Below, piece by piece: positions 1-62,202 of a stretch of DNA of 64,000 nt. The notes under the pieces are model-generated. The model saw nothing but the letters and a program-made list of their open reading frames with translations, was not told where the DNA came from and did no database searches. The position numbers and the translations under genes are program-made. This stretch comes from Candidatus Obscuribacterales bacterium (lineage in GTDB: Bacteria; Cyanobacteriota; Vampirovibrionia; Obscuribacterales; Obscuribacteraceae): NCBI GenBank assembly GCA_965228855.1, contig CBDDIJ010000003.1:3168001-3232000 (forward strand), read 5' to 3'. Each line of letters opens with the position of its first letter. The first letter of the stretch is position 1.

Positions 1-1850
1 AGCCCTTCTTTGCTGTCGTTGCTAACGGTTACTTTAGAACTGAACGAGTCACCGGAAACCTTCACGCCACCTTTAACTGGAACATCGGAAACCGGCTTTA
101 CTTCACCTGGATCCGGTCCAGCCATCATGATTAGCGGCGCCGCGAGCGCAACCGGTGGAACGAACATGCCACCAGCTATGGCGGCAAGCATACCGGCAGT
201 TTTCAAAGCAAAAATCGCTTTCGAATGATCCTTCTCCGACTTCTGTTTGTAAGCGACGAAGTCTAACGGAGGGAAGTAGGGCAGAGGTTCCGTACTGTTT
301 TCTTCCTGCGGCGGCAGATCGCTTACGCCTTCCCAGGCGAGCGTGATCCGGTCGAACACATAAGGTCTATCAACCGTCCCCTCTACCTCAATCTTGTCAC
401 CGACGCGGGCTGTTTTCGGCACGGGGTGTATGATTCCGCGGTTAGTCAAAACTTCGATACACGAAATAATTTGAGCCCCCTGATTCATCGGCTCAATTGC
501 ATAGCCAACATGAGTGGCTTCCGGAGCCAGTAGCGCCTCACGATCATCTTGTTGCATCAGCAATTGCTTCAGCAGCTTTGCGACCGCTGCCTTACAGAGA
601 TGCGAGGTGTTCAGATCGGCAGTGCTTAGAATGGCAAGGGTTTCGTTGACAGCATCGACTCCGCCAAGCAAAGTGTAGCGCCTGTCAGGATTATCGCCTT
701 TAGCGTTATTGTGCGATACAACACCGCGCTCAACCAGATCGCGGATTTGTTCGTCCGCCATTTTCTGCGCCAGATGATTATGTTGAAGCACTCCAAGCGC
801 TCGCCTCTGGCGTTCGTAATTAATCAGCTCGAGCGCATAAGCATCCAGAATGGTTCTGTTCGACTTTTTGTAGTTGTCGGGGTTGTCGATAATCTCGTCG
901 AGATAAGCCAACTCCGCAGGGTCCGGGCTGTTGTTCGCCATCGGGTTATCGACGAATCCTTCAGGCGGACCAAGTCCGTCATCGAACATCCCACCGGGCG
1001 GTTCAGCGGAAGGGGCCTTGCCAAGCAAAGTAGTCTTCAGGCGCTCGGTACGATCGAACAACGAATCATTGGGGTACGTCTTTGCAAACACCGCGGATTC
1101 AAGTGAAATCAGGCGTTCCTCAATCTGCAAATCCGGTTTGGAAGTTCCGAATGTCAGCTGCTCGAGTTTTCCAATCGCGGGATACATATCAGCGGGTGAC
1201 GGCTGGGACGCACCGCCTGCAGTGGCAGTTGAGCCAGAAGAACTCTTGCCGATAGGCGGCGCAGTTTTCAATCCTCCACCTGAAGAGCTGTACGAACTGC
1301 TGCCTTTCGACGAACTTGAGCCCAGTGAACTTAGACCCGCTTTGCTACCGGACGAGTCGCTGCGGCTTGATGAACTCACTGAAGAGGAAGTACCCGAGTG
1401 CGTATTTGAATTCGAAGGTCGAGATATTCTATAGGGATCGGAAGGCCGGCTAATTCGATCAGAGTCTTTTCCAGTTCCACTACCCGGGAGTTGACCAGGT
1501 CGAGCTATCCGATCGCTGCTCTCCGAAGACGGATGTGCGGAATTTTTGGGAACGCTGTCCAGCTGAGCATGCTGTTCCTGAACGGCACTAGCAGCCGGCT
1601 TCGCAGTCTCTGTGCGATCAGATGGTTTGACAATTTTCGGTGCAGTCGGTGGCATCGTTGCAGAACTGCTCTGCGCAAGTGCAGGCGCAGCCGGCATGAG
1701 CATCAGAAGGCTGAGCGCGACAGCGATAAACGGTTTCATCGCAAAAGAAAAATTTGATCGCGTGATGATTGCGATCGCGCCAAGCAACAAAGCTTTGAGA
1801 AGCTCGGGTGCCGGTGAGGAATAGATTCTTTGCGTGGAGAGAAAAGACAC
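1..1850 (-). CDS. Secreted CAP/SCP-like domain protein, running off the window edge (3' end missing)
   Basis: Minus-strand frame read manually from GTG 1850 (alternative ATG 1739) toward base 1; absent from the ORF track, consistent with no stop in the window. Signal peptide (MKPFIAVALSLLMLMPAAPALAQ), Ser-rich linker, then CAP-like segment (GVVSHNNAKGDNPDRRY...VNETLA...LLAPEATHVG). Confidence 0.65.
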   Translation of the reverse strand, partial: MSFLSTQRIYSSPAPELLKALLLGAIAIITRSNFSFAMKPFIAVALSLLMLMPAAPALAQSSSATMPPTAPKIVKPSDRTETAKPAASAVQEQHAQLDSVPKNSAHPSSESSDRIARPGQLPGSGTGKDSDRISRPSDPYRISRPSNSNTHSGTSSSVSSSSRSDSSGSKAGLSSLGSSSSKGSSSYSSSGGGLKTAPPIGKSSSGSTATAGGASQPSPADMYPAIGKLEQLTFGTSKPDLQIEERLISLESAVFAKTYPNDSLFDRTERLKTTLLGKAPSAEPPGGMFDDGLGPPEGFVDNPMANNSPDPAELAYLDEIIDNPDNYKKSNRTILDAYALELINYERQRRALGVLQHNHLAQKMADEQIRDLVERGVVSHNNAKGDNPDRRYTLLGGVDAVNETLAILSTADLNTSHLCKAAVAKLLKQLLMQQDDREALLAPEATHVGYAIEPMNQGAQIISCIEVLTNRGIIHPVPKTARVGDKIEVEGTVDRPYVFDRITLAWEGVSDLPPQEENSTEPLPYFPPLDFVAYKQKSEKDHSKAIFALKTAGMLAAIAGGMFVPPVALAAPLIMMAGPDPGEVKPVSDVPVKGGVKVSGDSFSSKVTVSNDSKEG

Positions 1851-43333: not shown

Positions 43334-43407
43334 CTGCCCGTAGCCCAGTTGGATAGAGCGCATGGCTACGAACCATGAGGTCGGAAGTTCGAGTCTTCCC
43401 GGGCAGG
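43334..43407 (+). tRNA. tRNA-Arg(ACG), integration target; CCA not encoded
   Basis: Cloverleaf: acceptor CTGCCCG/CGGGCAG, D arm GCCC..GAGC, anticodon stem CATGG/CCATG with loop CTACGAA, T arm GGAAG-TTCGAGT-CTTCC. Confidence 0.96.
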
Positions 43408-43435
43408 CTCTTTTTAGACAATTGAGTGTATCGCA

Positions 43436-43523: not shown

Positions 43524-44549
43524 ATGTTAGAAGAAGGCATTGGGCGAACGACAGAGATTGATGCGCACGGTCATGTTACGCCAAGACACACGCTCGAAAA
43601 GATGGCGTCTGCCGTAAACGCTCCTGAAGGTGCGCAGGTCAATCTAATCAATCATGATTGGAGCATACCGCCAATCGGTAAGGTTATCAGGGCTGCGGTA
43701 CGGCCTCTGGACGACGGCTCCGAAGATTTCGCATTGCACCTTACCTTTGAGCGGTTTGAGGGACGCAATACGATTCAACTTCCAAGTGGAACGTCACTTG
43801 TTGTTCAAGGAAGCGAGAATGATGTTCGTCCATTTAGTTTTACGCAGCGGGACTATCAGCAAAATCTTGTAAGCCTGGTACTGGAGGCAAGAAACTTTCC
43901 CACAGTGCAAGAGTTGAAGTCTTTTAAGCAGGAGATTGACACCTCACCAATTTCTTGCCAGCTCGTCATTCAGCATGAGAAAGATCTACTAGTAACACCA
44001 AGTCTGCTGTTCCTACTCGGATACGGTTTCTTGGGCTGGTATGGGCTAAAAGTCAGCTCGAAGGTTGTAGACAAAATCGCCGATAAGCACGCAGAAAAAA
44101 TAATTGAAAACACCAATCAACTTATTCAGTTGTCGAAGCAGGCGGTAATCAGTTTCAAAAAACATCGAGGTGAGGCGGCAAGTACGCCCATGTTCCGGCA
44201 CCAGATTCAAGGTGACCCGATTGTAGAATTGGTCTACAGAGGAGAAGATGAACATTGGGCAAAATTAGGATTCTCGCAAGAAGCGCTTGAAGCAGCATTT
44301 GATCAAGCTCGCGAACTCAAGGAGCATGCTAACGCTGCCTACGTTCAATTTGTGTTTGACGATAAATGCCTGTGGAAGTTAAATTGGGCCGCTACAGACA
44401 AGGGTGAGATCGTCGCTAGCGAATACGCCCTCTCCATGAGAGACAGTTTGCTTCGAGAGATTGAAGAAGAGTGTAGATCTGAAGGAAGGACTGTGGGTCT
44501 ATCACCAGCCTACGTACCAACGGAAATAGAACTGCGTGAGAAATCTTAG
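43524..44549 (+). CDS. Hypothetical protein with phage prohead-protease-like termini and a central hydrophobic helix
   Basis: N-terminal TTEIDAHG...LINHDWSIPPIGKV and C-terminal GLSPAY..IELREKS resemble HK97-type maturation protease motifs; central LLFLLGYGFLGWYGL helix. Confidence 0.6.
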   Translation: MLEEGIGRTTEIDAHGHVTPRHTLEKMASAVNAPEGAQVNLINHDWSIPPIGKVIRAAVRPLDDGSEDFALHLTFERFEGRNTIQLPSGTSLVVQGSENDVRPFSFTQRDYQQNLVSLVLEARNFPTVQELKSFKQEIDTSPISCQLVIQHEKDLLVTPSLLFLLGYGFLGWYGLKVSSKVVDKIADKHAEKIIENTNQLIQLSKQAVISFKKHRGEAASTPMFRHQIQGDPIVELVYRGEDEHWAKLGFSQEALEAAFDQARELKEHANAAYVQFVFDDKCLWKLNWAATDKGEIVASEYALSMRDSLLREIEEECRSEGRTVGLSPAYVPTEIELREKS

Positions 44550-44717
44550 CGCTCCTCGCCAGGGTTTCTAGAAAACATACTTTTCCATTTAGCAAGCCCG
44601 ATGCCATCACGGGTGATACCGATTTCGAGACAGGCAGACCTATCGATATCACAAGAGCTTAAGACCTCCTTCCCTGTGCGCTATAATAGGCGCGCTAGTT
44701 CACAAGTGGTTGTTGAA

Positions 44718-45122
44718 ATGAATCATTGGTTGCTTTGTCTTCCGCGCGCAGACATGGAACACTGTATCAAGATCGGTACTTTCGGTCTCAATAGGAAATA
44801 CATGTTAGGACAAGTCCGCGTTGATGACGACATTGCGTGCTGTGCCGGAAAAGGCGAATGGATGATAGTCGGCATTGGCAAAGCGTCTAGCGAGTATTTT
44901 ATAGATGATCGGAAAAAGTTTCTGGGCAACGGCCTGTTCCCCGACCGATTCGAATTTAGAGCGAAGCAACTAGCAAGCTCTAACGAGGTTTCCTTAATTG
45001 AAATTCTTGACAAGCTTTCCTTTGTTAGTAACATCGCACACTGGTCTGTGTACTTCAGGAACGGTATCGTCAAGATCTCCGATCATGACTGGGATCTGAT
45101 AGCGTCATTGGTCCGGAAGTGA
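44718..45122 (+). CDS. EVE domain protein (PUA-like modified-base reader)
   Basis: MNHWL..., GIGKASSEYF, FPDRF, LSFV...W..YFR.G..KISDHDWDLI. Start at ATG 44718. Confidence 0.8.
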   Translation: MNHWLLCLPRADMEHCIKIGTFGLNRKYMLGQVRVDDDIACCAGKGEWMIVGIGKASSEYFIDDRKKFLGNGLFPDRFEFRAKQLASSNEVSLIEILDKLSFVSNIAHWSVYFRNGIVKISDHDWDLIASLVRK

Positions 45123-45361: not shown

Positions 45362-48300
45362 ATGAGGCGCGCGACAGTGAGTCCGCCTAAGAAAAAGAAT
45401 CCCAAGAAACCATCCAATAAAAATGCTGAAAGCTCGAAACAGCGCGGAACATCTTCTGCTGCACGAAGGGGCCTTGTTGCCGAGACTGGAATTAAGTACC
45501 CTCCCATAGCGATCGAAATATCTAGCCTCAGTTCGTCTGCCAAGAAGAAGTTTGCCAAGTCACTCGAAAAATACCTGGACAATCTGGAGCGGCTTGTTAG
45601 TGAGAGTAGTCGCTCACATCGTTTCGCGATGTTCTTTCAAGAGATCTTCGGAGTTGAAACTGAGCTAATCGCAAAGTACACGACTGGAATAGAGAAGAGC
45701 CTTCGAGTAAAAAACGATGATCAAATATTGAGAGGTCGTGCAGACAATCTATTCGGCAACTTAATCATTGAGTTTGAATCCAAGATACCAGACAAGCTGA
45801 ATGAAGCAATAGAGCAGCTAAGAAGATACGTAGCGATTATTTGGTCCACCGAGCAGTTGAATGAGAGAACACCTTTTCTTGCGCTCGCCACTGATGGTGC
45901 TCGATTCTATATGTACTCCGCGACGGCTGATCAAACCAAGGCGTTTTTGAGTCCAGATGACGTTGAGCTTACCGAAGTAGACTACGTAGATTGGACTTCG
46001 CTCAATGCCGATGATGTATGGATGTGGGTTGACCGCTACTTCTGGCGAGAAGAGCCGATGATCCCGCAGACCAACACAATAGTTCGCGACTTCGGGATCG
46101 GAAGCCATGCGTTCAAAACCATCACGAATGTTTTGATGAGCCGATGGCAAAGCTGCAAATCAAAAAGCTCTTTTGATGTCGTTTATGATAGTTGGGAGAA
46201 GTATCTTAGGATCGTGTATGGCGAAACGGTCGGAGCCGATGAGCTGTTTATAAGGCATACATACCTAGCCACTTTTGCAAAGCTGCTCTCGTGGGTTCAT
46301 ATCAGCGAGAGCACGCACTCCCCTTCACTTGAAGAAATAAATGAAGTAATTAGTGGCGACTACTTCAAGAAACAAGGAATCGAAAATTTCATTGAGGAGG
46401 ATTTCTTCTCCTGGATCGTTAGAAGTGAAGCCTTATCTGACGGTATTAAGATCTGCAAGTGGTTGCTCAGCATTCTTCGAAAGTACGACTTGAGTCGACT
46501 CTCAGAGGATGTTCTCAAGTCGCTTTACCAAGAACTTGTCGATCCGCAAGCAAGGCGCTACCTCGGTGAATTCTACACACCAGATTGGCTGGCTGACAAA
46601 ATCGTATCTGGAGCATTGCAAAAGAAGCCGGAAGCAACAGTTTTGGATCCGACGTGCGGCTCTGGGTCCTTCCTCTATCTGGCGGTGAGACGCAAACGAG
46701 AACTTTTGGGAGAATCACAAGATACACTCGCCCATGTATTTTCGAGCGTTTGCGGAATTGATATCCACCCACTGGCAGTAATCATTGCGAAAACAAACTT
46801 CATTTTGGCGCTTGGCGGTCTCCTCGCTAAAAGAAAACAATCGGTCACTATTCCTGTCTATTTGAGCGACTCAATTCGCCTTCCAGAGAAGGGGCAGATG
46901 TCCGTTTTCTTGCAAGTCCCCGGATTCAAAGTCACCTTAGAGGGAACCGAAGTCTTCTTGCCAGAAGAGTTCGTTGAGGACTACAACCTTTACGATCAGA
47001 CAATCGAACTGGCGCGAGAGTATGCCAGGCAGCACGAGAAAAAGCCCATTGACGTAACCTCGTTCAAAAGTTTTCTCGAAGTTTCAAAATACCCAAAACT
47101 AAGTGATGACCAACTTGTCCGATCCGCGTTTGAAATTGCGAAGGTACTCAAAGACTTCATCGACAACGAGCGAGACTCAATTTGGTCGTATGTACTCAAA
47201 AACATCTACAAGCCGCTCTTCCTGAAAAACAAATTCGACTACATTCTAGGAAATCCACCATGGCTACCCTATCGGCTTATGGAGAGCCAGTATCAAAAAT
47301 CCCTCAAAGAGCAAATCGTCAGGCAGTACAAACTATACTGCGGCAAGGCAGAGATGATGACCGCTATGGAAGTCGCAACCCTGTTTTTGCTACGTGCAGC
47401 AGATCTCTATCTTAAGAAGGGCGGCGAGATTACTTTTGTTCTCCCCCGCTCAATTTTCTCTGCCGAACAACACGATAGCTTACGGAGGAAATCCTTCAAG
47501 CTCTTCGAGAACACAGATCAAACCGTTGATTGGTGCGAAATTTGGGATTTGAAAGACGTCAAACCAATTTTCAGATTTCCCTGCTGTGTGCTTCGTGCAG
47601 AGAAAATCGATTCCGATCCAAACCGCAAGCACACGCCGACACCAACACTCACATTCAGCGGGCGACTTCCAAACCGAAATTTGAAACTCTCTGATGCACA
47701 AATTCACTTGAGCCACCGAAGCGAACAATTGCAAACGCAATTGATCGGAAAACGCTCTTTCTGGGACACCAATACCACCACCGTTACAAATTTAGGGCGA
47801 AGCGCGTATTTTGACAAATTCGCAGAGGGAGCGACTATCGTTCCTCGGTGCTGCTGGTTTGTGACCATTGGCGCCACCAAGCTTGGTATCAATTTGAAGT
47901 GTCCAGCAATAGCGAGTGAGCCCCATGCGATGGCGACTGCAAAGGACGCATACAAAGGTGTTAGTATCAAGGGCACCGTAGAGAATCAGTTCCTGTACGG
48001 CACGATGACTGGTTCGGAAGTTATTCCTTTCGGCTCAACAGGAATGAGAGTCGTGCTCCTACCCCTACTACGAAAGAATGGAATTAGTAAGATTTTTGAA
48101 AGTGCTGATGCCAGATCATCAGGATTTCTCCACTTATCAAAATGGTTGCTTCAGGTTGAGAAAGTCTGGAGCGAACGACGTGGTGCAAAGGCCGGGAAGA
48201 TGACCATTTACAAGCGCATAAACCACAACAATGGTTTAACGCGTCAAAAGACAGACGCTCAATATAGAGTGGTATACAACGGCGCCGGTAAAAACATTTC

Positions 48301-48739
48301 TTGTGCAGTCATTGAAAAACAGAAGGACATGAGTACAAACATCAATGGCCAAGACATATCGTTGTCGGGGTTCATCGCGGACTGCAAACTAATTTATTTT
48401 GAAACGGATAATGCAAACGAAGCGTTCTACCTGGCAGCATTTTTAAACTCGTCAGAGGTCAACAAGCTGATTAAGCCGATTCAAAGCCATGGGGAACACA
48501 ATCCGCGAGACATTCACAAAAAGCCGTTTGAATTGCCAATACCAAAATTCGATCCCAAAGATCAAACCCACATTCGTCTTGCCAAGCTGTCGCGAGCAGC
48601 CACCGACAAGATTCGAAAGTGGTCCAAGTCAACGAATCTGTCAACGCAATCAATAGCGAAAACTCGTGCCCAGGCTAGGAGTCTAATTACTTCGGAACTC
48701 GAAGAGATCGACAGTATTGTGAAACCACTACTAAGCTGA
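45362..48739 (+). CDS. Type IIG-like fused restriction endonuclease / N6-adenine methyltransferase
   Basis: N-terminal GRADNLFGNLIIEFE nuclease-like motif, LGEFYTPDW, VLDPTCGSGSFL (motif I), GNPPW (motif IV), C-terminal TRD-like region (YLAAFLNS, LPIPKFDP). Confidence 0.9.
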   Translation: MRRATVSPPKKKNPKKPSNKNAESSKQRGTSSAARRGLVAETGIKYPPIAIEISSLSSSAKKKFAKSLEKYLDNLERLVSESSRSHRFAMFFQEIFGVETELIAKYTTGIEKSLRVKNDDQILRGRADNLFGNLIIEFESKIPDKLNEAIEQLRRYVAIIWSTEQLNERTPFLALATDGARFYMYSATADQTKAFLSPDDVELTEVDYVDWTSLNADDVWMWVDRYFWREEPMIPQTNTIVRDFGIGSHAFKTITNVLMSRWQSCKSKSSFDVVYDSWEKYLRIVYGETVGADELFIRHTYLATFAKLLSWVHISESTHSPSLEEINEVISGDYFKKQGIENFIEEDFFSWIVRSEALSDGIKICKWLLSILRKYDLSRLSEDVLKSLYQELVDPQARRYLGEFYTPDWLADKIVSGALQKKPEATVLDPTCGSGSFLYLAVRRKRELLGESQDTLAHVFSSVCGIDIHPLAVIIAKTNFILALGGLLAKRKQSVTIPVYLSDSIRLPEKGQMSVFLQVPGFKVTLEGTEVFLPEEFVEDYNLYDQTIELAREYARQHEKKPIDVTSFKSFLEVSKYPKLSDDQLVRSAFEIAKVLKDFIDNERDSIWSYVLKNIYKPLFLKNKFDYILGNPPWLPYRLMESQYQKSLKEQIVRQYKLYCGKAEMMTAMEVATLFLLRAADLYLKKGGEITFVLPRSIFSAEQHDSLRRKSFKLFENTDQTVDWCEIWDLKDVKPIFRFPCCVLRAEKIDSDPNRKHTPTPTLTFSGRLPNRNLKLSDAQIHLSHRSEQLQTQLIGKRSFWDTNTTTVTNLGRSAYFDKFAEGATIVPRCCWFVTIGATKLGINLKCPAIASEPHAMATAKDAYKGVSIKGTVENQFLYGTMTGSEVIPFGSTGMRVVLLPLLRKNGISKIFESADARSSGFLHLSKWLLQVEKVWSERRGAKAGKMTIYKRINHNNGLTRQKTDAQYRVVYNGAGKNISCAVIEKQKDMSTNINGQDISLSGFIADCKLIYFETDNANEAFYLAAFLNSSEVNKLIKPIQSHGEHNPRDIHKKPFELPIPKFDPKDQTHIRLAKLSRAATDKIRKWSKSTNLSTQSIAKTRAQARSLITSELEEIDSIVKPLLS

Positions 48740-48798: not shown

Positions 48799-50052
48799 TC
48801 ATTTAACCTGACCGTGATCAAATACAGGCAATGGCTGACCCATGTACACGCTCAGATCCATTATGATCTCGCTCACGCCCGGTGGTAGTTTGTCATACTT
48901 GTCGCGTGTCAAATCGCCAAGAATCATTTTGTCGCTGATGCTTGAACCGCTTGATTGAATCAATTCAGCCTCGCTAGCTTTTCCAGTTCGGTCGATTTGG
49001 AACCGAACCTTGAAAGTCTCTCGATTCTTCGTCGCAAGTCCACCGAATCGAATATTTCGATGCATCGTCTTACTGAGCCACTGGCTCAAATCTGTCTTGA
49101 TGAGCCCGGGTCTGTCAGGCTGAAATAGAGCCCCTTCCCGTAATGGCGAATTGAGACCTGGTCTCAGTCCCACCAGCTCAATCACTCCGTCAGACGGATT
49201 GTAGGACGAATCCTGAAACGCCATGTCACACTTCACAAGGTATGAAAGCTCTGACGCACAAATGCGCTTCATCGCTTCCTCTCCGACTGAGGCCGCCGTT
49301 TTGTCTTTGCCATGGCGCATCATCTGAATGTTGAACAGGGCATCGTCTGTATCAAGACTGAATCGGCAACCAAGCAGCAAGCAACCCAATGACCGCTCTT
49401 TATCTCCTTCCTTGGCCAATAGAAAACCGAGTTCATGCCATAGCCGCGACCACCGCGGATCAAGCTGTACGGCTTCAATGAAATGCGCGCGAGCAGCAGA
49501 GAACTGTTCCAAGGCAACCTCAGTTTCAGCAAGATAGCCGAGCGGATAAGACCATTTCGGATACATCGCATGGGCCATCTGAAAACCCGCAGCGGCTTCG
49601 TTCAACAACAACTCCCTCCGGGCCCCGGAACTCTTCTGTCCGGTTGCGAGAGTGTTGATTGATTTCGCATACATGCGAGAAGTGTCCAGATCAATCCGGC
49701 TTTGCGGTCTCCTAATGAACGCGGCTTCAATTGCGTCATCAGTTTGCTTTTGACGTTCCACATCGTTGAACAATGAACTCCCGTTCCATAACAGCGAAGC
49801 ACGAATGATACGATCCACCGCTGGCGGCACATTGCTTTTCCTCAATATGATTGGTTCGTGAGGTTTGGGAGGCGGATATAATGGAGACGTCTCGTTTGCT
49901 GCTGCGGCATTTGCAGGGAAGGATATGGCTATAAGACAAGCGACAATTTGCTGAACAATTTTAGTGCCAGGTCCGTTCATTCTGCGCATTTCCAGTATTC
50001 CCTGTAAATAGTGATTCTTGAAATTCTTCATGTGCGATAGGTTGCACTGCAC
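48799..50052 (-). CDS. Secreted TPR protein with TonB C-terminal-like domain
   Basis: Signal-like segment, TPRs, VRFQIDRTG...LIQSSGS..SD motif. True start is probably downstream of 50052. Confidence 0.65.
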   Translation of the reverse strand: MQCNLSHMKNFKNHYLQGILEMRRMNGPGTKIVQQIVACLIAISFPANAAAANETSPLYPPPKPHEPIILRKSNVPPAVDRIIRASLLWNGSSLFNDVERQKQTDDAIEAAFIRRPQSRIDLDTSRMYAKSINTLATGQKSSGARRELLLNEAAAGFQMAHAMYPKWSYPLGYLAETEVALEQFSAARAHFIEAVQLDPRWSRLWHELGFLLAKEGDKERSLGCLLLGCRFSLDTDDALFNIQMMRHGKDKTAASVGEEAMKRICASELSYLVKCDMAFQDSSYNPSDGVIELVGLRPGLNSPLREGALFQPDRPGLIKTDLSQWLSKTMHRNIRFGGLATKNRETFKVRFQIDRTGKASEAELIQSSGSSISDKMILGDLTRDKYDKLPPGVSEIIMDLSVYMGQPLPVFDHGQVK

Positions 50053-52738: not shown

Positions 52739-54247
52739 TTGTCATGTGGCAATCGGGACAATGCCGCACAGAGTAAGATGCTCAGATACTCGGAAAATAG
52801 TTCATCAAAACGAACACGTGCAATATCAGCCCAGGAGAAATATCACATGCATGGCAAGTTCAGCAGTCATAAGTTCGAACAACTTATCAATAAAGGAAAT
52901 CGAACAGGCAAGAAAGGCAATCACAAGGCAGCCCAAAAGTACTATCTGGAGGCCTTGCAGGAGACCGAAAAGAGCGGCACCGATCAAAAATCGAAGACGA
53001 TCGCGAACTTCAAACTTGGCGCCAGCGAGTATCGAAGAGGTAACCACGAAGCTGCAATCCCGTATCTGCTTGAAACCTACAAAGCCATTAATGAAGACTA
53101 TTTCGATGAAAAATCCAAGTTGCTCGTTCTGTCGGGTCTCGGTGCCTTCTACAATGCCAACGGCGAACTGCAACGTGCTGAAGAATTTCTGAATCAAGCC
53201 ATCAATATCGAACGTTCTCTTCGAAAGCAAGGCACACCTTATCTCGCCACAAATCTGGGGCTGCTGGGAAGCATCTACAGCTCCACGAGCCGCGTTTCAG
53301 ATGCAATACCGTTAATCGAAGAAGCCCTGTTGCTTATGCCGGAGCAGAGTCCATTCGAGCGCAGCACGCTAGAGCGACTCCTCGAAAAAATCTTGGAGGA
53401 GCAGGGGAATACCGAAAAGCTTTCGGCATTGAAGACTGCCAGAAACGAAAAACTACTCGAACGGGTCATGAAACCGCGCGCTATCAAGCGCGAGCCTTAT
53501 GACGTACCGAGGCATTGGCCTTGGGATAACGTCACGGAGTATCTCGATTACGTCTTTAGAAACACAGCTGCAACGGCGGGAAATGAGCCTGAGACCTTCC
53601 TTCAGTTTAGAAAAATCGATGCACAGTTCAGGGTTTTGGAAGAAAACTTACGAGCGTATTTGGCTACCAAGCTTGCAAGCCAGCGAAGTGAAGGCAAGAA
53701 GTTTTCACAACTTGTCGTTGACAATGAAGATTGGCTGGAAATCTTCTTCCTCATGCGAGCGCACTCCTCATGGCTCTCTGCCGTCGGTCTCTGCGCTGCC
53801 GGCCAAGTTCAGGAGGCTCACATGGTCTTGCGCGGCAGTGTCGAAAATGCCCTTTACGCATATCGGGTATTCAGGAGTCCGAAAGTTAAGAAGTACTGGT
53901 TTCGTCGAGACGATCCAGACCAAGAGGTGAGAGAAAAGGCGAAACGTTGTTTCTCCATCAAAGAAATTTCCACGCAGATGGAAGCAACTGATCCGTTTCT
54001 CAATGAGCGGTCTGCAGCATTGTATGAAACGTTGATTCAAGAGGGTGGACATCCGAACGTGCAGACATTTTGGAGATCTGCCATGCAAGAAAACGAACGG
54101 GGACAGTTGAGACTATCGGTCAGCTATCTTGATCCTGAGTCAGCGCCTCTACAAACGGTCATTGAGTCAGGAGAATTTTGTTTGTGGGTCTTTCAGATTG
54201 TCTTTCCGGAATACTCCGCTTATAAGGCGCCAAGTTCAGCTTCCTGA
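52739..54247 (+). CDS. TPR + C-terminal DUF5677/HEPN-like helical domain fusion
   Basis: Four or five TPRs, then AHMVLRGSVENALY and LYETLIQEGGHPN motifs. Start probably ATG 52779 or 52848. Confidence 0.65.
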   Translation: MSCGNRDNAAQSKMLRYSENSSSKRTRAISAQEKYHMHGKFSSHKFEQLINKGNRTGKKGNHKAAQKYYLEALQETEKSGTDQKSKTIANFKLGASEYRRGNHEAAIPYLLETYKAINEDYFDEKSKLLVLSGLGAFYNANGELQRAEEFLNQAINIERSLRKQGTPYLATNLGLLGSIYSSTSRVSDAIPLIEEALLLMPEQSPFERSTLERLLEKILEEQGNTEKLSALKTARNEKLLERVMKPRAIKREPYDVPRHWPWDNVTEYLDYVFRNTAATAGNEPETFLQFRKIDAQFRVLEENLRAYLATKLASQRSEGKKFSQLVVDNEDWLEIFFLMRAHSSWLSAVGLCAAGQVQEAHMVLRGSVENALYAYRVFRSPKVKKYWFRRDDPDQEVREKAKRCFSIKEISTQMEATDPFLNERSAALYETLIQEGGHPNVQTFWRSAMQENERGQLRLSVSYLDPESAPLQTVIESGEFCLWVFQIVFPEYSAYKAPSSAS

Positions 54248-54297: not shown

Positions 54298-55740
54298 TTA
54301 GTCGTCAAAATCATCAATGCAACCACCTCTGATGTACTGATAGTCTTTGAATGTTGAACGAGTGGTAGTTCGCTTCCAGACAAGCTCTTCACCAAGACCA
54401 AGGTGAACAAGCAGAAGCCCATTGAGAAGGGCACCAAGCGCGATGTTGGCACCAGCAATTTTCGTTGGTGACAATTTCTTTGCCCGCAACTTATCGGTGA
54501 AGTGCGTGTAATAGTTTCTCGTGTTCACAATTTCTCGCACCATGTCCCAATCGCCGACGAAGGACTCCTTGGTATCGGCCGGAAGCGAGTTCAGGAGATC
54601 GCTGAGCATGTCCCGCTGAGACAATTGATTTCCGTGTTCGATATTCGCCTTCAGCTTACCTTCGAACGAAGATTCGAGACCTTCAGGAATCAACTCCAGC
54701 AATTTTTTCAATAGAACGTCGTACTCTTCTTGCTGCATGTACACCTTTGTCCGAGTTGCACGATGAAACGCCTCCAGTGCCTGACACCACATCACAAAAT
54801 TTATCTCTGTGTGGAGCGCTGGATAACTCAGGAGGCTCGCAAAGAGAAATACTACGGACTGAAGACCTTCTGAACTGTCGTACCAATTTTTAACTGAGTT
54901 CTGAAATTGATTGGGATTCAACTCTGAAAGCCGTAGAAGCAGCCCATCTTTCTTGCGTCGTTTCCCCCATTCCTTTTCAATCGAAAAGTAGAGTGGCAAT
55001 AATTCTCCGGTCGGTGATGAAATTTGCGCCCGCAGCGGAGAGCAAGGGACACCATGAACCATTTCGAGGTAGTTTCCAAACATGGAAGCGAGGCGCAAAA
55101 GTTCCTGGATGACCATCGGTTTTCTCGCTTTGATTTCTACCCAAACTTCCTTGTTGACAGTAAGCTTTGAGCGCTCATTGCTCACGGTTCGCACGAACAG
55201 AAGATTTATTGCATAACCGCCCATATCAACGGACTGAAGAATCTCTTCCGAGGGCTCTGTTTTGTTCTCCTTCTGCTTTTCTTCGGGCAAAGCCGATTCC
55301 AATAGGTCTGAATACAGAAATCGCAAGGAGGAAGCTTCGAAGTTGTCCGCTTCAATGTGCGCGCCGATCACAACTCTTCTTGCATAAAACCGACTGTGAT
55401 TATAACCAGGGAATGTCATATTAGCCGAAGTCAGATCCGCGCCAATGATGGAGAAGGGTAAGCCAAGAGCAGAAATTCCGTGCAGGACGGCAGCCTGTTC
55501 AGCGATGCGTCGTCCTTCTCCGTTGGTGAATTCAGTCTGACCCTTTCGGGAACTCCACAGCCAATCTTGTAGCGATAATGACAACTGCGCCTTGGAGCCT
55601 TCCACCTTCAAAACGCCAGGAGCCTGATTCTCCATATCGCCTGGAAGCCACCAGTAGCCTTCAAATTCAAAGTCGTCAAACAACGTATACTTGACTGCGC
55701 CTAGTTCCGCTGCAACACGTTGACTTAGATTTGCCGTCAT
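54298..55740 (-). CDS. ApeA-type HEPN ribonuclease (ApeA N-terminal domain + HEPN)
   Basis: EGYWWLP....PGVL N-terminus, QALEAFHR, HEPN RxxxxH motif RNYYTH. Confidence 0.85.
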   Translation of the reverse strand: MTANLSQRVAAELGAVKYTLFDDFEFEGYWWLPGDMENQAPGVLKVEGSKAQLSLSLQDWLWSSRKGQTEFTNGEGRRIAEQAAVLHGISALGLPFSIIGADLTSANMTFPGYNHSRFYARRVVIGAHIEADNFEASSLRFLYSDLLESALPEEKQKENKTEPSEEILQSVDMGGYAINLLFVRTVSNERSKLTVNKEVWVEIKARKPMVIQELLRLASMFGNYLEMVHGVPCSPLRAQISSPTGELLPLYFSIEKEWGKRRKKDGLLLRLSELNPNQFQNSVKNWYDSSEGLQSVVFLFASLLSYPALHTEINFVMWCQALEAFHRATRTKVYMQQEEYDVLLKKLLELIPEGLESSFEGKLKANIEHGNQLSQRDMLSDLLNSLPADTKESFVGDWDMVREIVNTRNYYTHFTDKLRAKKLSPTKIAGANIALGALLNGLLLVHLGLGEELVWKRTTTRSTFKDYQYIRGGCIDDFDD

Positions 55741-56303: not shown

Positions 56304-56365
56304 TTGGTTTTCCTCCGTGTACTACGATTAAAGCACGCGGGAAATGAAGAAGTTCTCCATTCCAT

Positions 56366-56408
56366 TCCCCTCCCCTCCCCTCCCCTCCCCTCCCCTCCCC
56401 TCCCCTCC
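56366..56408 (-). repeat. (TCCCC)8 / (GGGGA)8 pentanucleotide microsatellite
   Basis: Eight perfect units at 56366-56405 plus TCC. Confidence 0.95.
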
Positions 56409-56427
56409 TTTGCCACCATATTTGGTG

Positions 56428-60719: not shown

Positions 60720-61928
60720 TCATCCCGATTTGCTTCGAGGCAGAACAATGTCGGAATTTGAGTCCGTCATCAGTCCCGGAGCGTGTTCACCCGCTATTCG
60801 CATAAGCTTTTGACCATGCTGCTCAAGGGCCTCCCTGACGTTGTCCTGACCAAATCGAGCGTATATCGCCGTCGTCGATGGATTTTTGTGATTCAAGATT
60901 TTTCCTATGAGATGCAAGCTGTTTCCCGACTGCGCCAGCCAGGAACCGAGTGTGCGGCGCAAGTCATGCAAACGAACATCTTCCACGCCAGCCGATTTCC
61001 TGATTCGATTCCAAATCTTCTGTATATTGACCAGGTGATGCCCGCGTTTTTCCCCTGGCAACAGGTAAGGATTGTTTTCTTCCTTAGGTAAGGTGAGGAG
61101 TATTGCTAGTGCTGGCGCACTAATCGGAACATAATGAATGGTTCCGCTCTTGGTGTCGGGCAGTCTCAGTTCTTGCCTCTCCCAATCAACGTCCTCCCAT
61201 TTTGCTCGAAGCAATTCATCCCGTCGAACGCCAAGCAGAAGGTATAACCATATTGCGGTCTTGCCGAAAAAGTTAGTTTCCTGAGTGATTGCGGCGGCGA
61301 GCCGAGGCAACTCATCCTGTTTGACCCACCGGTCTCGCTTAATTTCTTTATATGGCTTTATACCTCTGGAAGGGTTCGAATGTTCGTCAGGAAGAAAGCC
61401 CCAAGTCTTAGCTAATTCGAACATTTTCGATATCTGTTCAACGAGACGATTTGCGGCATAAGGATGGTCTCGTCCAATCGAAAAGTGGAGGTGCGCCACA
61501 TCGGCCCTAGTGATTGCTCCCAGGCGACAGGTTCCAAAGGCAGGAACGAGATACTTTTCAATGCGTCGCTGGTCCTCTCGCCAAGTTTTCTTGTGCTGTT
61601 TCGCGTATCTCTCCAAATAGATTGCGCCGAACTCCCTGAAGGTAATGGTTTTTCCTTCCGTGCTTTCGAACGGGTCTTTGCGATCAATTAGCGAAGCAAG
61701 ATGTTTTCTTGCCCGATCTTTCGCTTGATCAAGAGTTAAAACACCGTATTTGCCTATCACTTTAATGTGCTGACGCCCTTGATGCCTATAAGACAGCACA
61801 AACGATTTCTTTCCTGTCGGATAGACCCGCACGCCAAAGCCAGGCAAAGCGCGATCCCAATGAATTAGTTGAGATCCCTTGTCTTTAGAGTATTCTAATT
61901 TGTCGATAATACTTTTAGTCAGAGTCAT
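60720..61928 (-). CDS. int: Tyrosine integrase, P4-like, with N-terminal arm-binding domain
   Basis: WD..LPGFGVRV.PTGKKSF arm-binding domain; catalytic residues in GVRRDEL, TKSG, HDLRRT, LNH, TTAIYA. Confidence 0.96.
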   Translation of the reverse strand: MTLTKSIIDKLEYSKDKGSQLIHWDRALPGFGVRVYPTGKKSFVLSYRHQGRQHIKVIGKYGVLTLDQAKDRARKHLASLIDRKDPFESTEGKTITFREFGAIYLERYAKQHKKTWREDQRRIEKYLVPAFGTCRLGAITRADVAHLHFSIGRDHPYAANRLVEQISKMFELAKTWGFLPDEHSNPSRGIKPYKEIKRDRWVKQDELPRLAAAITQETNFFGKTAIWLYLLLGVRRDELLRAKWEDVDWERQELRLPDTKSGTIHYVPISAPALAILLTLPKEENNPYLLPGEKRGHHLVNIQKIWNRIRKSAGVEDVRLHDLRRTLGSWLAQSGNSLHLIGKILNHKNPSTTAIYARFGQDNVREALEQHGQKLMRIAGEHAPGLMTDSNSDIVLPRSKSG

Positions 61929-62160: not shown

Positions 62161-62202
62161 CTACGAACCATGAGGTCGTACGTTCGAGTCGTACCGGGCA
62201 GG
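62161..62202 (+). repeat. attR: displaced 3' half of tRNA-Arg
   Basis: 38/42 identity with 43366-43407; retains an intact T arm and acceptor 3' strand. Confidence 0.93.

Follow-up and report, generated by a model that had tools for sequence, protein, structure and literature searches.

The closest described relatives of the protein reported here are the prohead maturation proteases of the XkdF type (PF14550, Peptidase_S78_2) and the HK97 type (PF04586, Peptidase_S78), together with T4 gp21 and the herpesvirus assemblins, all of which share with it the first five strands, both helices and a histidine. Cleavage of the HK97 capsid falls at K103/S104 (PMC10275583), and PMC12991175 uses H85A/S140A as the dead mutant of gp21. 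A second point of comparison is EACC1/Pepco, for which PMC12642450 describes a cut in a comparable loop and a C-terminal part that forms pores; in those modules cutting is left to a second enzyme, caspase- or trypsin-like, which is fused to STAND or some other sensor.

The DNA analysed (the window) is a 64,000-nucleotide stretch from Candidatus Obscuribacterales bacterium, and its ORF list places a 341-aa product at 43524-44549 on the plus strand. The protein is likely a one-gene anti-phage tripwire. We see about an even chance that it is a split-protease sensor in a single gene, whose fold would be completed by a phage scaffold strand and which would then cut its own loop and free an EACC1-like membrane-active insert. 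The parts of the gene are as follows.

43524..44549, plus strand: whole gene, a split prohead-protease half plus an insert of about 220 aa (ORF, relatives, model)
43524..43757, plus strand: residues 1-78, strands 1-5 and helix 1 of a prohead-protease barrel of XkdF/HK97 type
43653..43655, plus strand: His44, the catalytic His position (124/124; aligned to the XkdF/S78 His)
43758..44420, plus strand: insert, residues 79-299 (about 220 aa; secondary structure of the models)
43971..43991, plus strand: loop 150-156 with Lys153, the predicted cleavage loop (conservation; interface of the complex model)
43986..44057, plus strand: residues 155-178, the most hydrophobic segment, directly past the loop
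44421..44480, plus strand: helix 300-319, helix 2 of the protease fold, where the chain comes back from the insert (DSSP; inside the gp21/herpes alignments, which run over 1..332-340)
44484..44516, plus strand: tail strand with Ser327 (44502-44504), the predicted nucleophile (motif against shuffles; complex-model contacts)

The gene is the first ORF past the att core in tRNA-Arg(ACG), which agrees with the earlier description of it, made from the sequence alone, as the first cargo gene after attL. The integration site and the far end of the element comprise three further features.

43334..43408, plus strand: tRNA-Arg(ACG), the integration site, with the att core at 43366-43407
62161..62202, plus strand: second att copy, the right end of the 18.8-kb element (38/42 identical to 43366-43407)
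60720..61928, minus strand: tyrosine-integrase-like gene, 402 aa, beside the att copy (read by eye from sequence and position)

The 42 bp repeat (43366-43407, inside tRNA-Arg(ACG), against 62161-62202; 90% identity) bounds an 18.8-kb element of lower GC that carries restriction-modification-type methyltransferase, DnaB-like, ApeA-like HEPN and HTH genes, with the integrase-like gene at its right end. The att copies differ at four positions and the T-arm stem is complementary in both; with this pairing kept, the copy on the element appears to be a functional tRNA 3' half of different sequence. The absence of capsid and portal genes nearby, also claimed earlier, holds in the 12 window proteins scanned, among which there is no portal, capsid or terminase, and 21 phage prohead proteases used as tblastn queries against the whole genome give no match.

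Other genes of the element are worth recording. Directly 3' of the gene lies a 173-aa ORF (44601-45122, plus strand) with a weak EVE-domain match (E 0.057). It stands upstream of the 1125-aa methyltransferase gene, could be a modified-DNA reader, and is no conserved partner of the 341-aa protein's family. The 1125-aa gene itself (45362-48739, plus strand) is fused and nuclease/N6-methyltransferase-like, with Eco57I, N6_Mtase and MmeI domains. Two TPR proteins are encoded on the element, one (52739-54247, plus strand) with a C-terminal region that fits no known family and the other (48799-50052, minus strand) with a weakly TonB-C-like end. The ApeA-like HEPN protein (54298-55740, minus strand; HEPN_Apea plus ApeA_NTD1) is likely a second defence gene of the element. 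A short tandem run at 56340-56420, coding repeated P-S-P-P-L, is intergenic between element core genes.

Searching 1.84 billion representatives with phmmer yields 175 matches at E≤0.001, 95 of them at ≤1e-10. Members are 300-340 aa long and about 20-40% identical, and the 10 clusters looked up are all unnamed or hypothetical. Counts over 124 proteins refer to an alignment of the query with 123 relatives drawn from the best 150 of the 175 matches, after 25 relatives outside 290-390 aa and two with shifted N-termini were left out. The scanned members fit no Pfam, PHROG, PADLOC or NCBIfam family. The query has no match to PF14550 or PF04586, and members stay far below the cut-offs of these families: PF14550 is matched by 4/124 (best E 5.5e-4), PF04586 by 1/124 (0.014), TIGR01543 by 1/50 at 0.026, and phrog_80 by one member at 1.4e-5. 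In PADLOC-DB 2.0.0 the query finds no match, and each model is matched by at most one of the 124 members at E≤0.01. The distribution is rare, patchy and sporadic: 2/106 other genomes of the order, 0/7 of the genus, 2/350 further genomes of another phylum and, in the genome scan, 14 loci spread over some eight bacterial lineages. Two weak genome matches in the phylum sample were judged to be chance, one of them (L003) having been read. A word-index homologue search returns the query alone, and two proteins with the family profile. Among 50,697 phage records, one family member as query has no full-length match, and a viral scan with the closest relative as query finds nothing; the two full-length matches of the family on viral contigs both lie beside recombinases. 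Some members are extended. L013:3051-5120 runs into a TIR domain and P0054 into a PNP phosphorylase domain, which may be two genes read through; both were set aside as evidence because a Met directly follows the family domain in each. P0050 and P0079 end in a SEC-C metal-binding motif.

On sequence comparison, residues 1-78 are a genuine XkdF/HK97-type protease half. Over residues 10-77, hhalign places the family profile on an XkdF alignment of seven sequences (P=2.1e-5) and on an S78 alignment of 14 (P=6.7e-4), in both cases His on His, which bears out the sequence-only reading that the first ~75 aa resemble the His-bearing part of these enzymes. His44 is the sole invariant residue of the family, present in 124/124, so that the conservation of the histidine among homologues, put forward as a check at that time, is complete. 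No alternative Ser or Thr is invariant in the family; Thr10, Ser97 and Thr291 all vary.

Structural comparison points the same way. Sequence searches of the PDB with the query give nothing useful. The AlphaFold2 model is confident except for the tail (pLDDT 91.9, pTM 0.90), and the best PDB match of the first model, by a comparison other than Foldseek, is T4 gp21 (5jbl; Z 4.0, rmsd 3.8, 107 aligned, model 1..340 on gp21 38..153), while a second model gives Z 5.1, rmsd 3.2 and 99 aligned (1..332 on 38..145); all of the structural Z-scores are middling (<8), and the gp21 rows are tied with MIF/tautomerase rows over the insert. Provided that the last stretch holds no gap, both end points bring residue 327 onto residue 140 of gp21. 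The varicella and cytomegalovirus proteases (herpesvirus assemblins 1vzv and 8j3s) also span both ends of the model, and the same end-point arithmetic sets residue 327 on varicella protease residue 120, which we take to be that enzyme's nucleophile. Foldseek against the PDB has no match at E≤0.001. In the viral structure library (BFVD), XkdF proteins and prohead proteases make up most of the top rows, with prob 0.9-1.0 across 80-125 columns, all at E≥0.012 and none at E≤0.001.

The second predicted catalytic residue is a more variable matter. A G-x-S-phi tail occurs in 28/124 members, at clustered positions, against a mean of 5.6 and a maximum of 15 in 1000 shuffles. The exact XkdF register, G-x-x-x-G-phi-S, occurs in 9/124 tails (shuffle mean 0.5, max 4), and these nine include the present protein and its four closest full-length relatives. 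The G-x-S-phi motif is missing from 96 of the 124 members; 38 lack Ser anywhere in that stretch, and in 13 the chain runs for fewer than 27 residues past Gly294. On a FastTree tree the Ser tail is scattered, changing 19 times against 27.8 in shuffles. Tail alignments give P=0.024 against XkdF and P=0.006 against S78, with rows chosen by motif. By these counts the Ser strand is real but optional in the family. The suggestion that the C-terminus is a Ser-bearing part of the protease is partly upheld for Ser327, which sits in the XkdF register and on gp21 140 if ungapped, and is limited by its being kept in only 28/124; the 'LxExS' once read in the last residues is not conserved, and the family lacks the strand that truly ends the fold. 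In the lone protein residues 327-330 are disordered, with pLDDT <50 even when the alignment is enriched in tails, so the two ends by themselves close no active site. With the last strand also missing, the idea that the two termini make one complete protease by themselves is not supported. The Ser of the R-K-S loop, considered as an alternative nucleophile, was rejected (Ala in 33/124, Gly in 7/124).

As judged from motif searches, the family barrel is without its last strand. The strand pattern (phi-S-phi-V..AN / EVSLV type), which was widened once after misses were seen (the first version gave 4 matches) and was controlled by shuffles on the family, is found in cis in 4/124 members, against a shuffle mean of 3.1. 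Its frequency in neighbouring genes, 4/367, is likewise chance-like, and across the family chains and these 367 neighbours no host source of the missing strand was found.

Phage proteases carry the strand elsewhere. In seven XkdF proteins the last barrel strand is N-terminal in five and lies after the Ser strand in one. For the seventh (L113) a strand in the next gene was foreseen before inspection and then found: the protease half ends soon after the Ser strand, and the missing strand stands at the start of the next gene, which has a capsid-like gene behind it. Among 31 related viral loci (28 distinct), a sample close to L113 by design and no census of phages, the strand opens the next, scaffold-like gene in 24/28, a variant is visible in two more, and it is in cis in none. 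K/R stands at a fixed distance past the strand in all 25 non-redundant phage scaffold/XkdF N-termini, which derive from 110/118 phage loci, and K/R-[S/A/G] in 21/25. These loci (L113:1231-2606, L212-L242) encode two-gene prohead proteases in which the strand opening the scaffold-like gene is followed by a conserved K-[S/A/G]; in many of the protease halves the Ser strand is followed by a His-rich extension of 80-98 residues.

The same dipeptide recurs inside the insert. Residue 153 is K/R in 114/124 members and residue 154 is S/A/G in 117/124, with both in 108/124; the loop here reads E-K-D, with Asp after Lys153, against R-K-[S/A/G] in the family. Comparison of the two sets of sequences, with the HK97 cut at K103/S104 as a parallel, suggests that K-[S/A/G] would be the enzyme's own cut site, copied by the Lys153 loop, XkdF-type activity and its K-S specificity both being presumed. 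The best hydrophobic window starts between 2 residues before and 15 after Lys153 in 106/124. The order of elements in the insert is a hairpin, a beta-alpha-beta unit, the loop, a strand and hydrophobic helix, a long amphipathic helix, a hairpin, helices and a three-stranded sheet. Within the core, both models are least confident over residues 171-190. The best 19-residue Kyte-Doolittle mean is 1.51 here (family median 1.49; ≥1.6 in 39/124). A hydrophobic segment is thus present where a membrane helix had been proposed, but it is a strand followed by a 12-residue helix, and at 1.51 it is marginal and no classical transmembrane segment.

The insert may, by analogy, work like EACC1. The likeness was proposed before the Atlas comparison, in which the best named set for residues 108-255 (score 0.75, a weak lead) carries PF19953 in 19% of that set's own members, and PF19953 is not among the best 25 of the 65 Pfam families matched by members. 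Comparison of the insert by hhalign with 120 EACC1-like proteins, a cyanobacteria-biased set, gives P=0.16-0.25, no better than the reversed control at 0.09. That no EACC1 entry appears among the PDB matches rules nothing out. Searches for EACC1 found 0/151 in the host's own phylum and 1/151 in Chloroflexota, the latter spurious, and nothing usable in five further entries; the usable sequences came from cyanobacteria. Four of six PF19953 matches are full genes that lie directly upstream of a caspase-like ORF. The searches also brought up, in cyanobacteria, a large set of EACC1-like genes with caspase-like genes immediately downstream (L102, L104, L105, L106; P0152-P0271), with 742 matches, mostly without a precomputed Pfam match, and with PF19953 in 3 of the 120 listed. 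The insert is MIF/tautomerase-like at Z 3.0-5.5. Kinship on that basis (Z≤5.5) was not accepted, and the likeness is taken as a common beta-alpha-beta arrangement only.

Folding the full protein with residues 1-33 of an XkdF protein on a 50-row alignment scores 0.72, against 0.01 for the best of three controls; that mark is reached by 116/157 solved and 2/215 mismatched pairs, counts that are only rough for our own alignments. The runs agree in at least 87% of contacts, with partner pLDDT ≥60. In the model the partner's Ser14 touches residues 40-44 and 327-328, and residues 327 and 328 contact partner residues 13 and 14, which seats the phage strand between the His44 strand and the Ser327 strand. 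The predicted interface also takes in loop 150-156. The earlier idea of a scaffold sensor gains a concrete basis here, in that the missing strand is a phage scaffold N-terminus and the complex prediction passes. This pass may stem from similarity to gp21 and herpes folds that have been solved, and the model is of an open, fitting groove, which says nothing of affinity or of binding in a cell. Taken over the whole chain, conservation in tail-less members is slightly higher at interface positions than elsewhere (p=0.03); within residues 1-80 there is no such excess, in tail-less (p=0.59) or tail-bearing (0.44) members.

A groove of this kind would also suit a decoy or saboteur of head assembly, which would capture scaffold N-termini and block the phage protease half or mis-cut scaffold or capsid, the insert being a structural or anchoring domain and the cell not killed. 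We regard this as improbable. The predicted binding to the scaffold strand agrees with it, as do the non-significant EACC1 comparison, the marginal hydrophobicity and the host element, which has integrase, HTH and DnaB-like genes and no head genes. On this element such a role would resemble satellite interference with a helper phage capsid. It nevertheless leaves unexplained why a conserved K/R-small loop should lie at the interface just before the hydrophobic segment in 106/124 members, and homologues also sit inside restriction-modification loci and at plain chromosomal sites.

Under the split-protease sensor, the N-terminal strand of the phage scaffold would enter the half barrel late in infection and, as the complex model predicts, slot between the His44 strand and the Ser327 strand. 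Its arrival is predicted to order the tail and form the His-Ser pair, with the Lys153 loop alongside. The completed enzyme would then cut after Lys153, at a site copying the K-[S/A/G] of the phage scaffold. By analogy with cleaved EACC1, the cut would free the hydrophobic helix and the amphipathic helices, the membrane would be damaged and the infected cell killed, with protection against phage as the presumed outcome. For the Ser-less homologues, about three quarters of the family, the phage might supply the Ser, on its half of the protease or on a longer piece; otherwise, binding of the strand might be enough to release the insert. The tail-less majority is the main difficulty for the proposed mechanism.

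It is this majority that speaks for a sensor without catalysis of its own, an unlikely reading but the one of the rivals to which we give most weight. Here the half barrel would only dock a phage strand or a phage protease; binding would displace the Lys153 loop and expose the hydrophobic helix, or else the phage protease would cut the loop. The Ser tail is dispensable in most members while His44 and the loop are kept, and contact between His44 and the incoming Ser14 could explain the invariance of His44. There is precedent in the phage prohead proteases that cut CBASS activation loops, as described in PMC12991175. Docking, however, would not need a Ser tail, which occurs far above chance and stands in exact XkdF register in the clade of this protein. 

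A bolder form of the catalytic reading is put more tentatively, at somewhat below even chances. In it the protein is the captured catalytic half of a two-gene phage maturation protease serving as a split-enzyme biosensor; the rebuilt enzyme would cut the copy of its maturation site that the chain itself contains, and the insert would form pores and kill.

The genomic neighbourhood of the family suggests a defence role. Across 52 non-redundant loci there is no conserved partner gene, which makes this a single-gene family. Homologues in ordinary head operons, raised earlier as a check, were not encountered: no portal, terminase or capsid appears among the 137 ORFs, of 187 within 3.5 kb, that were scanned with Pfam. 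The description of the protein as a domesticated phage protease is supported, for a prohead-protease fold split by an insert and placed outside head operons, often in defence or mobile loci. Neighbouring domains include restriction-modification, GmrSD, OLD plus UvrD, AbiJ, AbiEii, HEPN, Schlafen, TIR, caspase, EAD1 and integrases or recombinases, with caspase domains near only two family loci. Members lie beside Gabija, Septu, Dazbog, type I/II/III restriction-modification, GmrSD, AbiJ and Kiwa, and a plasmid-borne member lies between RloB-family and kwaA/kwaB genes. At L017:8001-8957 and L053:6923-7969 a type I restriction-modification operon holds the family gene between its hsdS and hsdM.

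Of the 29 loci that span 5 kb or more, 27 entered the PADLOC comparison (150 ORFs), without L051 and without L053, which nearly repeats L017; the control was a set of 20 arbitrary 8-kb stretches from five family-holding genomes (139 ORFs). Hand-curated, clear defence families occur at 13/27 loci against 2/20 controls (Fisher p=0.01), by a criterion set after the matches were seen. Any PADLOC match occurs at 14/27 against 10/20 (p=1.0), and matches of at least 100 bits over at least 70% of the profile at 9/27 against 5/20 (p=0.75). The enrichment in defence genes that had been proposed as a check is thus visible in the curated count, and the mechanical criteria do not reproduce it. These null tests, together with the 13/27 loci that lack any PADLOC match and the lack of a fitting PADLOC, Pfam, PHROG or NCBIfam family, would suit a protein with no defence role at all, a protease-derived fold reused, for example as a regulated membrane protein, and drifting in mobile islands. 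This is the least probable of the readings considered, and doubtful on two grounds. First, the family appears as sporadic single-gene insertions beside known defence systems. Second, the open groove fits a strand found only in phages, for which no host source came to light.

If the split-protease sensor is borne out, a virus would be recognised because it completes the fold of an enzyme taken from viruses, a new mode of detection, distinct from a receptor or from a bait loop on its own. Escape would be hard for the phage, because its own protease needs the strand. The system would occupy one gene and offer a cheap, exact test in the form of a 20-30 residue scaffold strand, and it would provide the first direct assay found for the activity and specificity of XkdF-type proteases. 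It would also support the view that scaffolds switch on two-gene phage proteases, and would represent a natural peptide-gated protease switch.

Compared with known systems, the family shares with XkdF-type enzymes the Ser strand G-x-x-x-G-phi-S, common to a minority of members, and, like the two-gene phage XkdF proteases, it ends right after this strand. It differs from prohead proteases in several respects: an insert of about 220 aa lies between strand 5 and helix 2, the last strand is neither in cis nor next door, Ser is lost in most members, the loci read contain no head operon, and scores fall far below the family cut-offs. EACC1/Pepco, as presented in PMC12642450, resembles the proposed arrangement in its latent monomer, the cutting of one loop and the release of a hydrophobic C-terminal part, and the order of elements is similar. 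Here, however, protease, sensor and putative effector would be in one chain, with a protease of phage head type. Unlike PF19953 genes, the insert is internal to a chain of 310-340 aa and has no conserved neighbour, and tests of sequence homology to EACC1 are not significant. A full-text literature search, with subscription journals and supplements outside its scope, turned up no account of the family, nor one of any defence protein made from half a prohead protease. The account of CBASS activation by prohead proteases in PMC12991175 is alike in late-infection sensing of head maturation through a cleavable loop. There an intact phage protease cuts the host cyclase, whereas in this family the host keeps half of the protease and is predicted to borrow the strand. 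A cut followed by a pore has its precedent in EACC1/Pepco, and what would be new is the sensing step.
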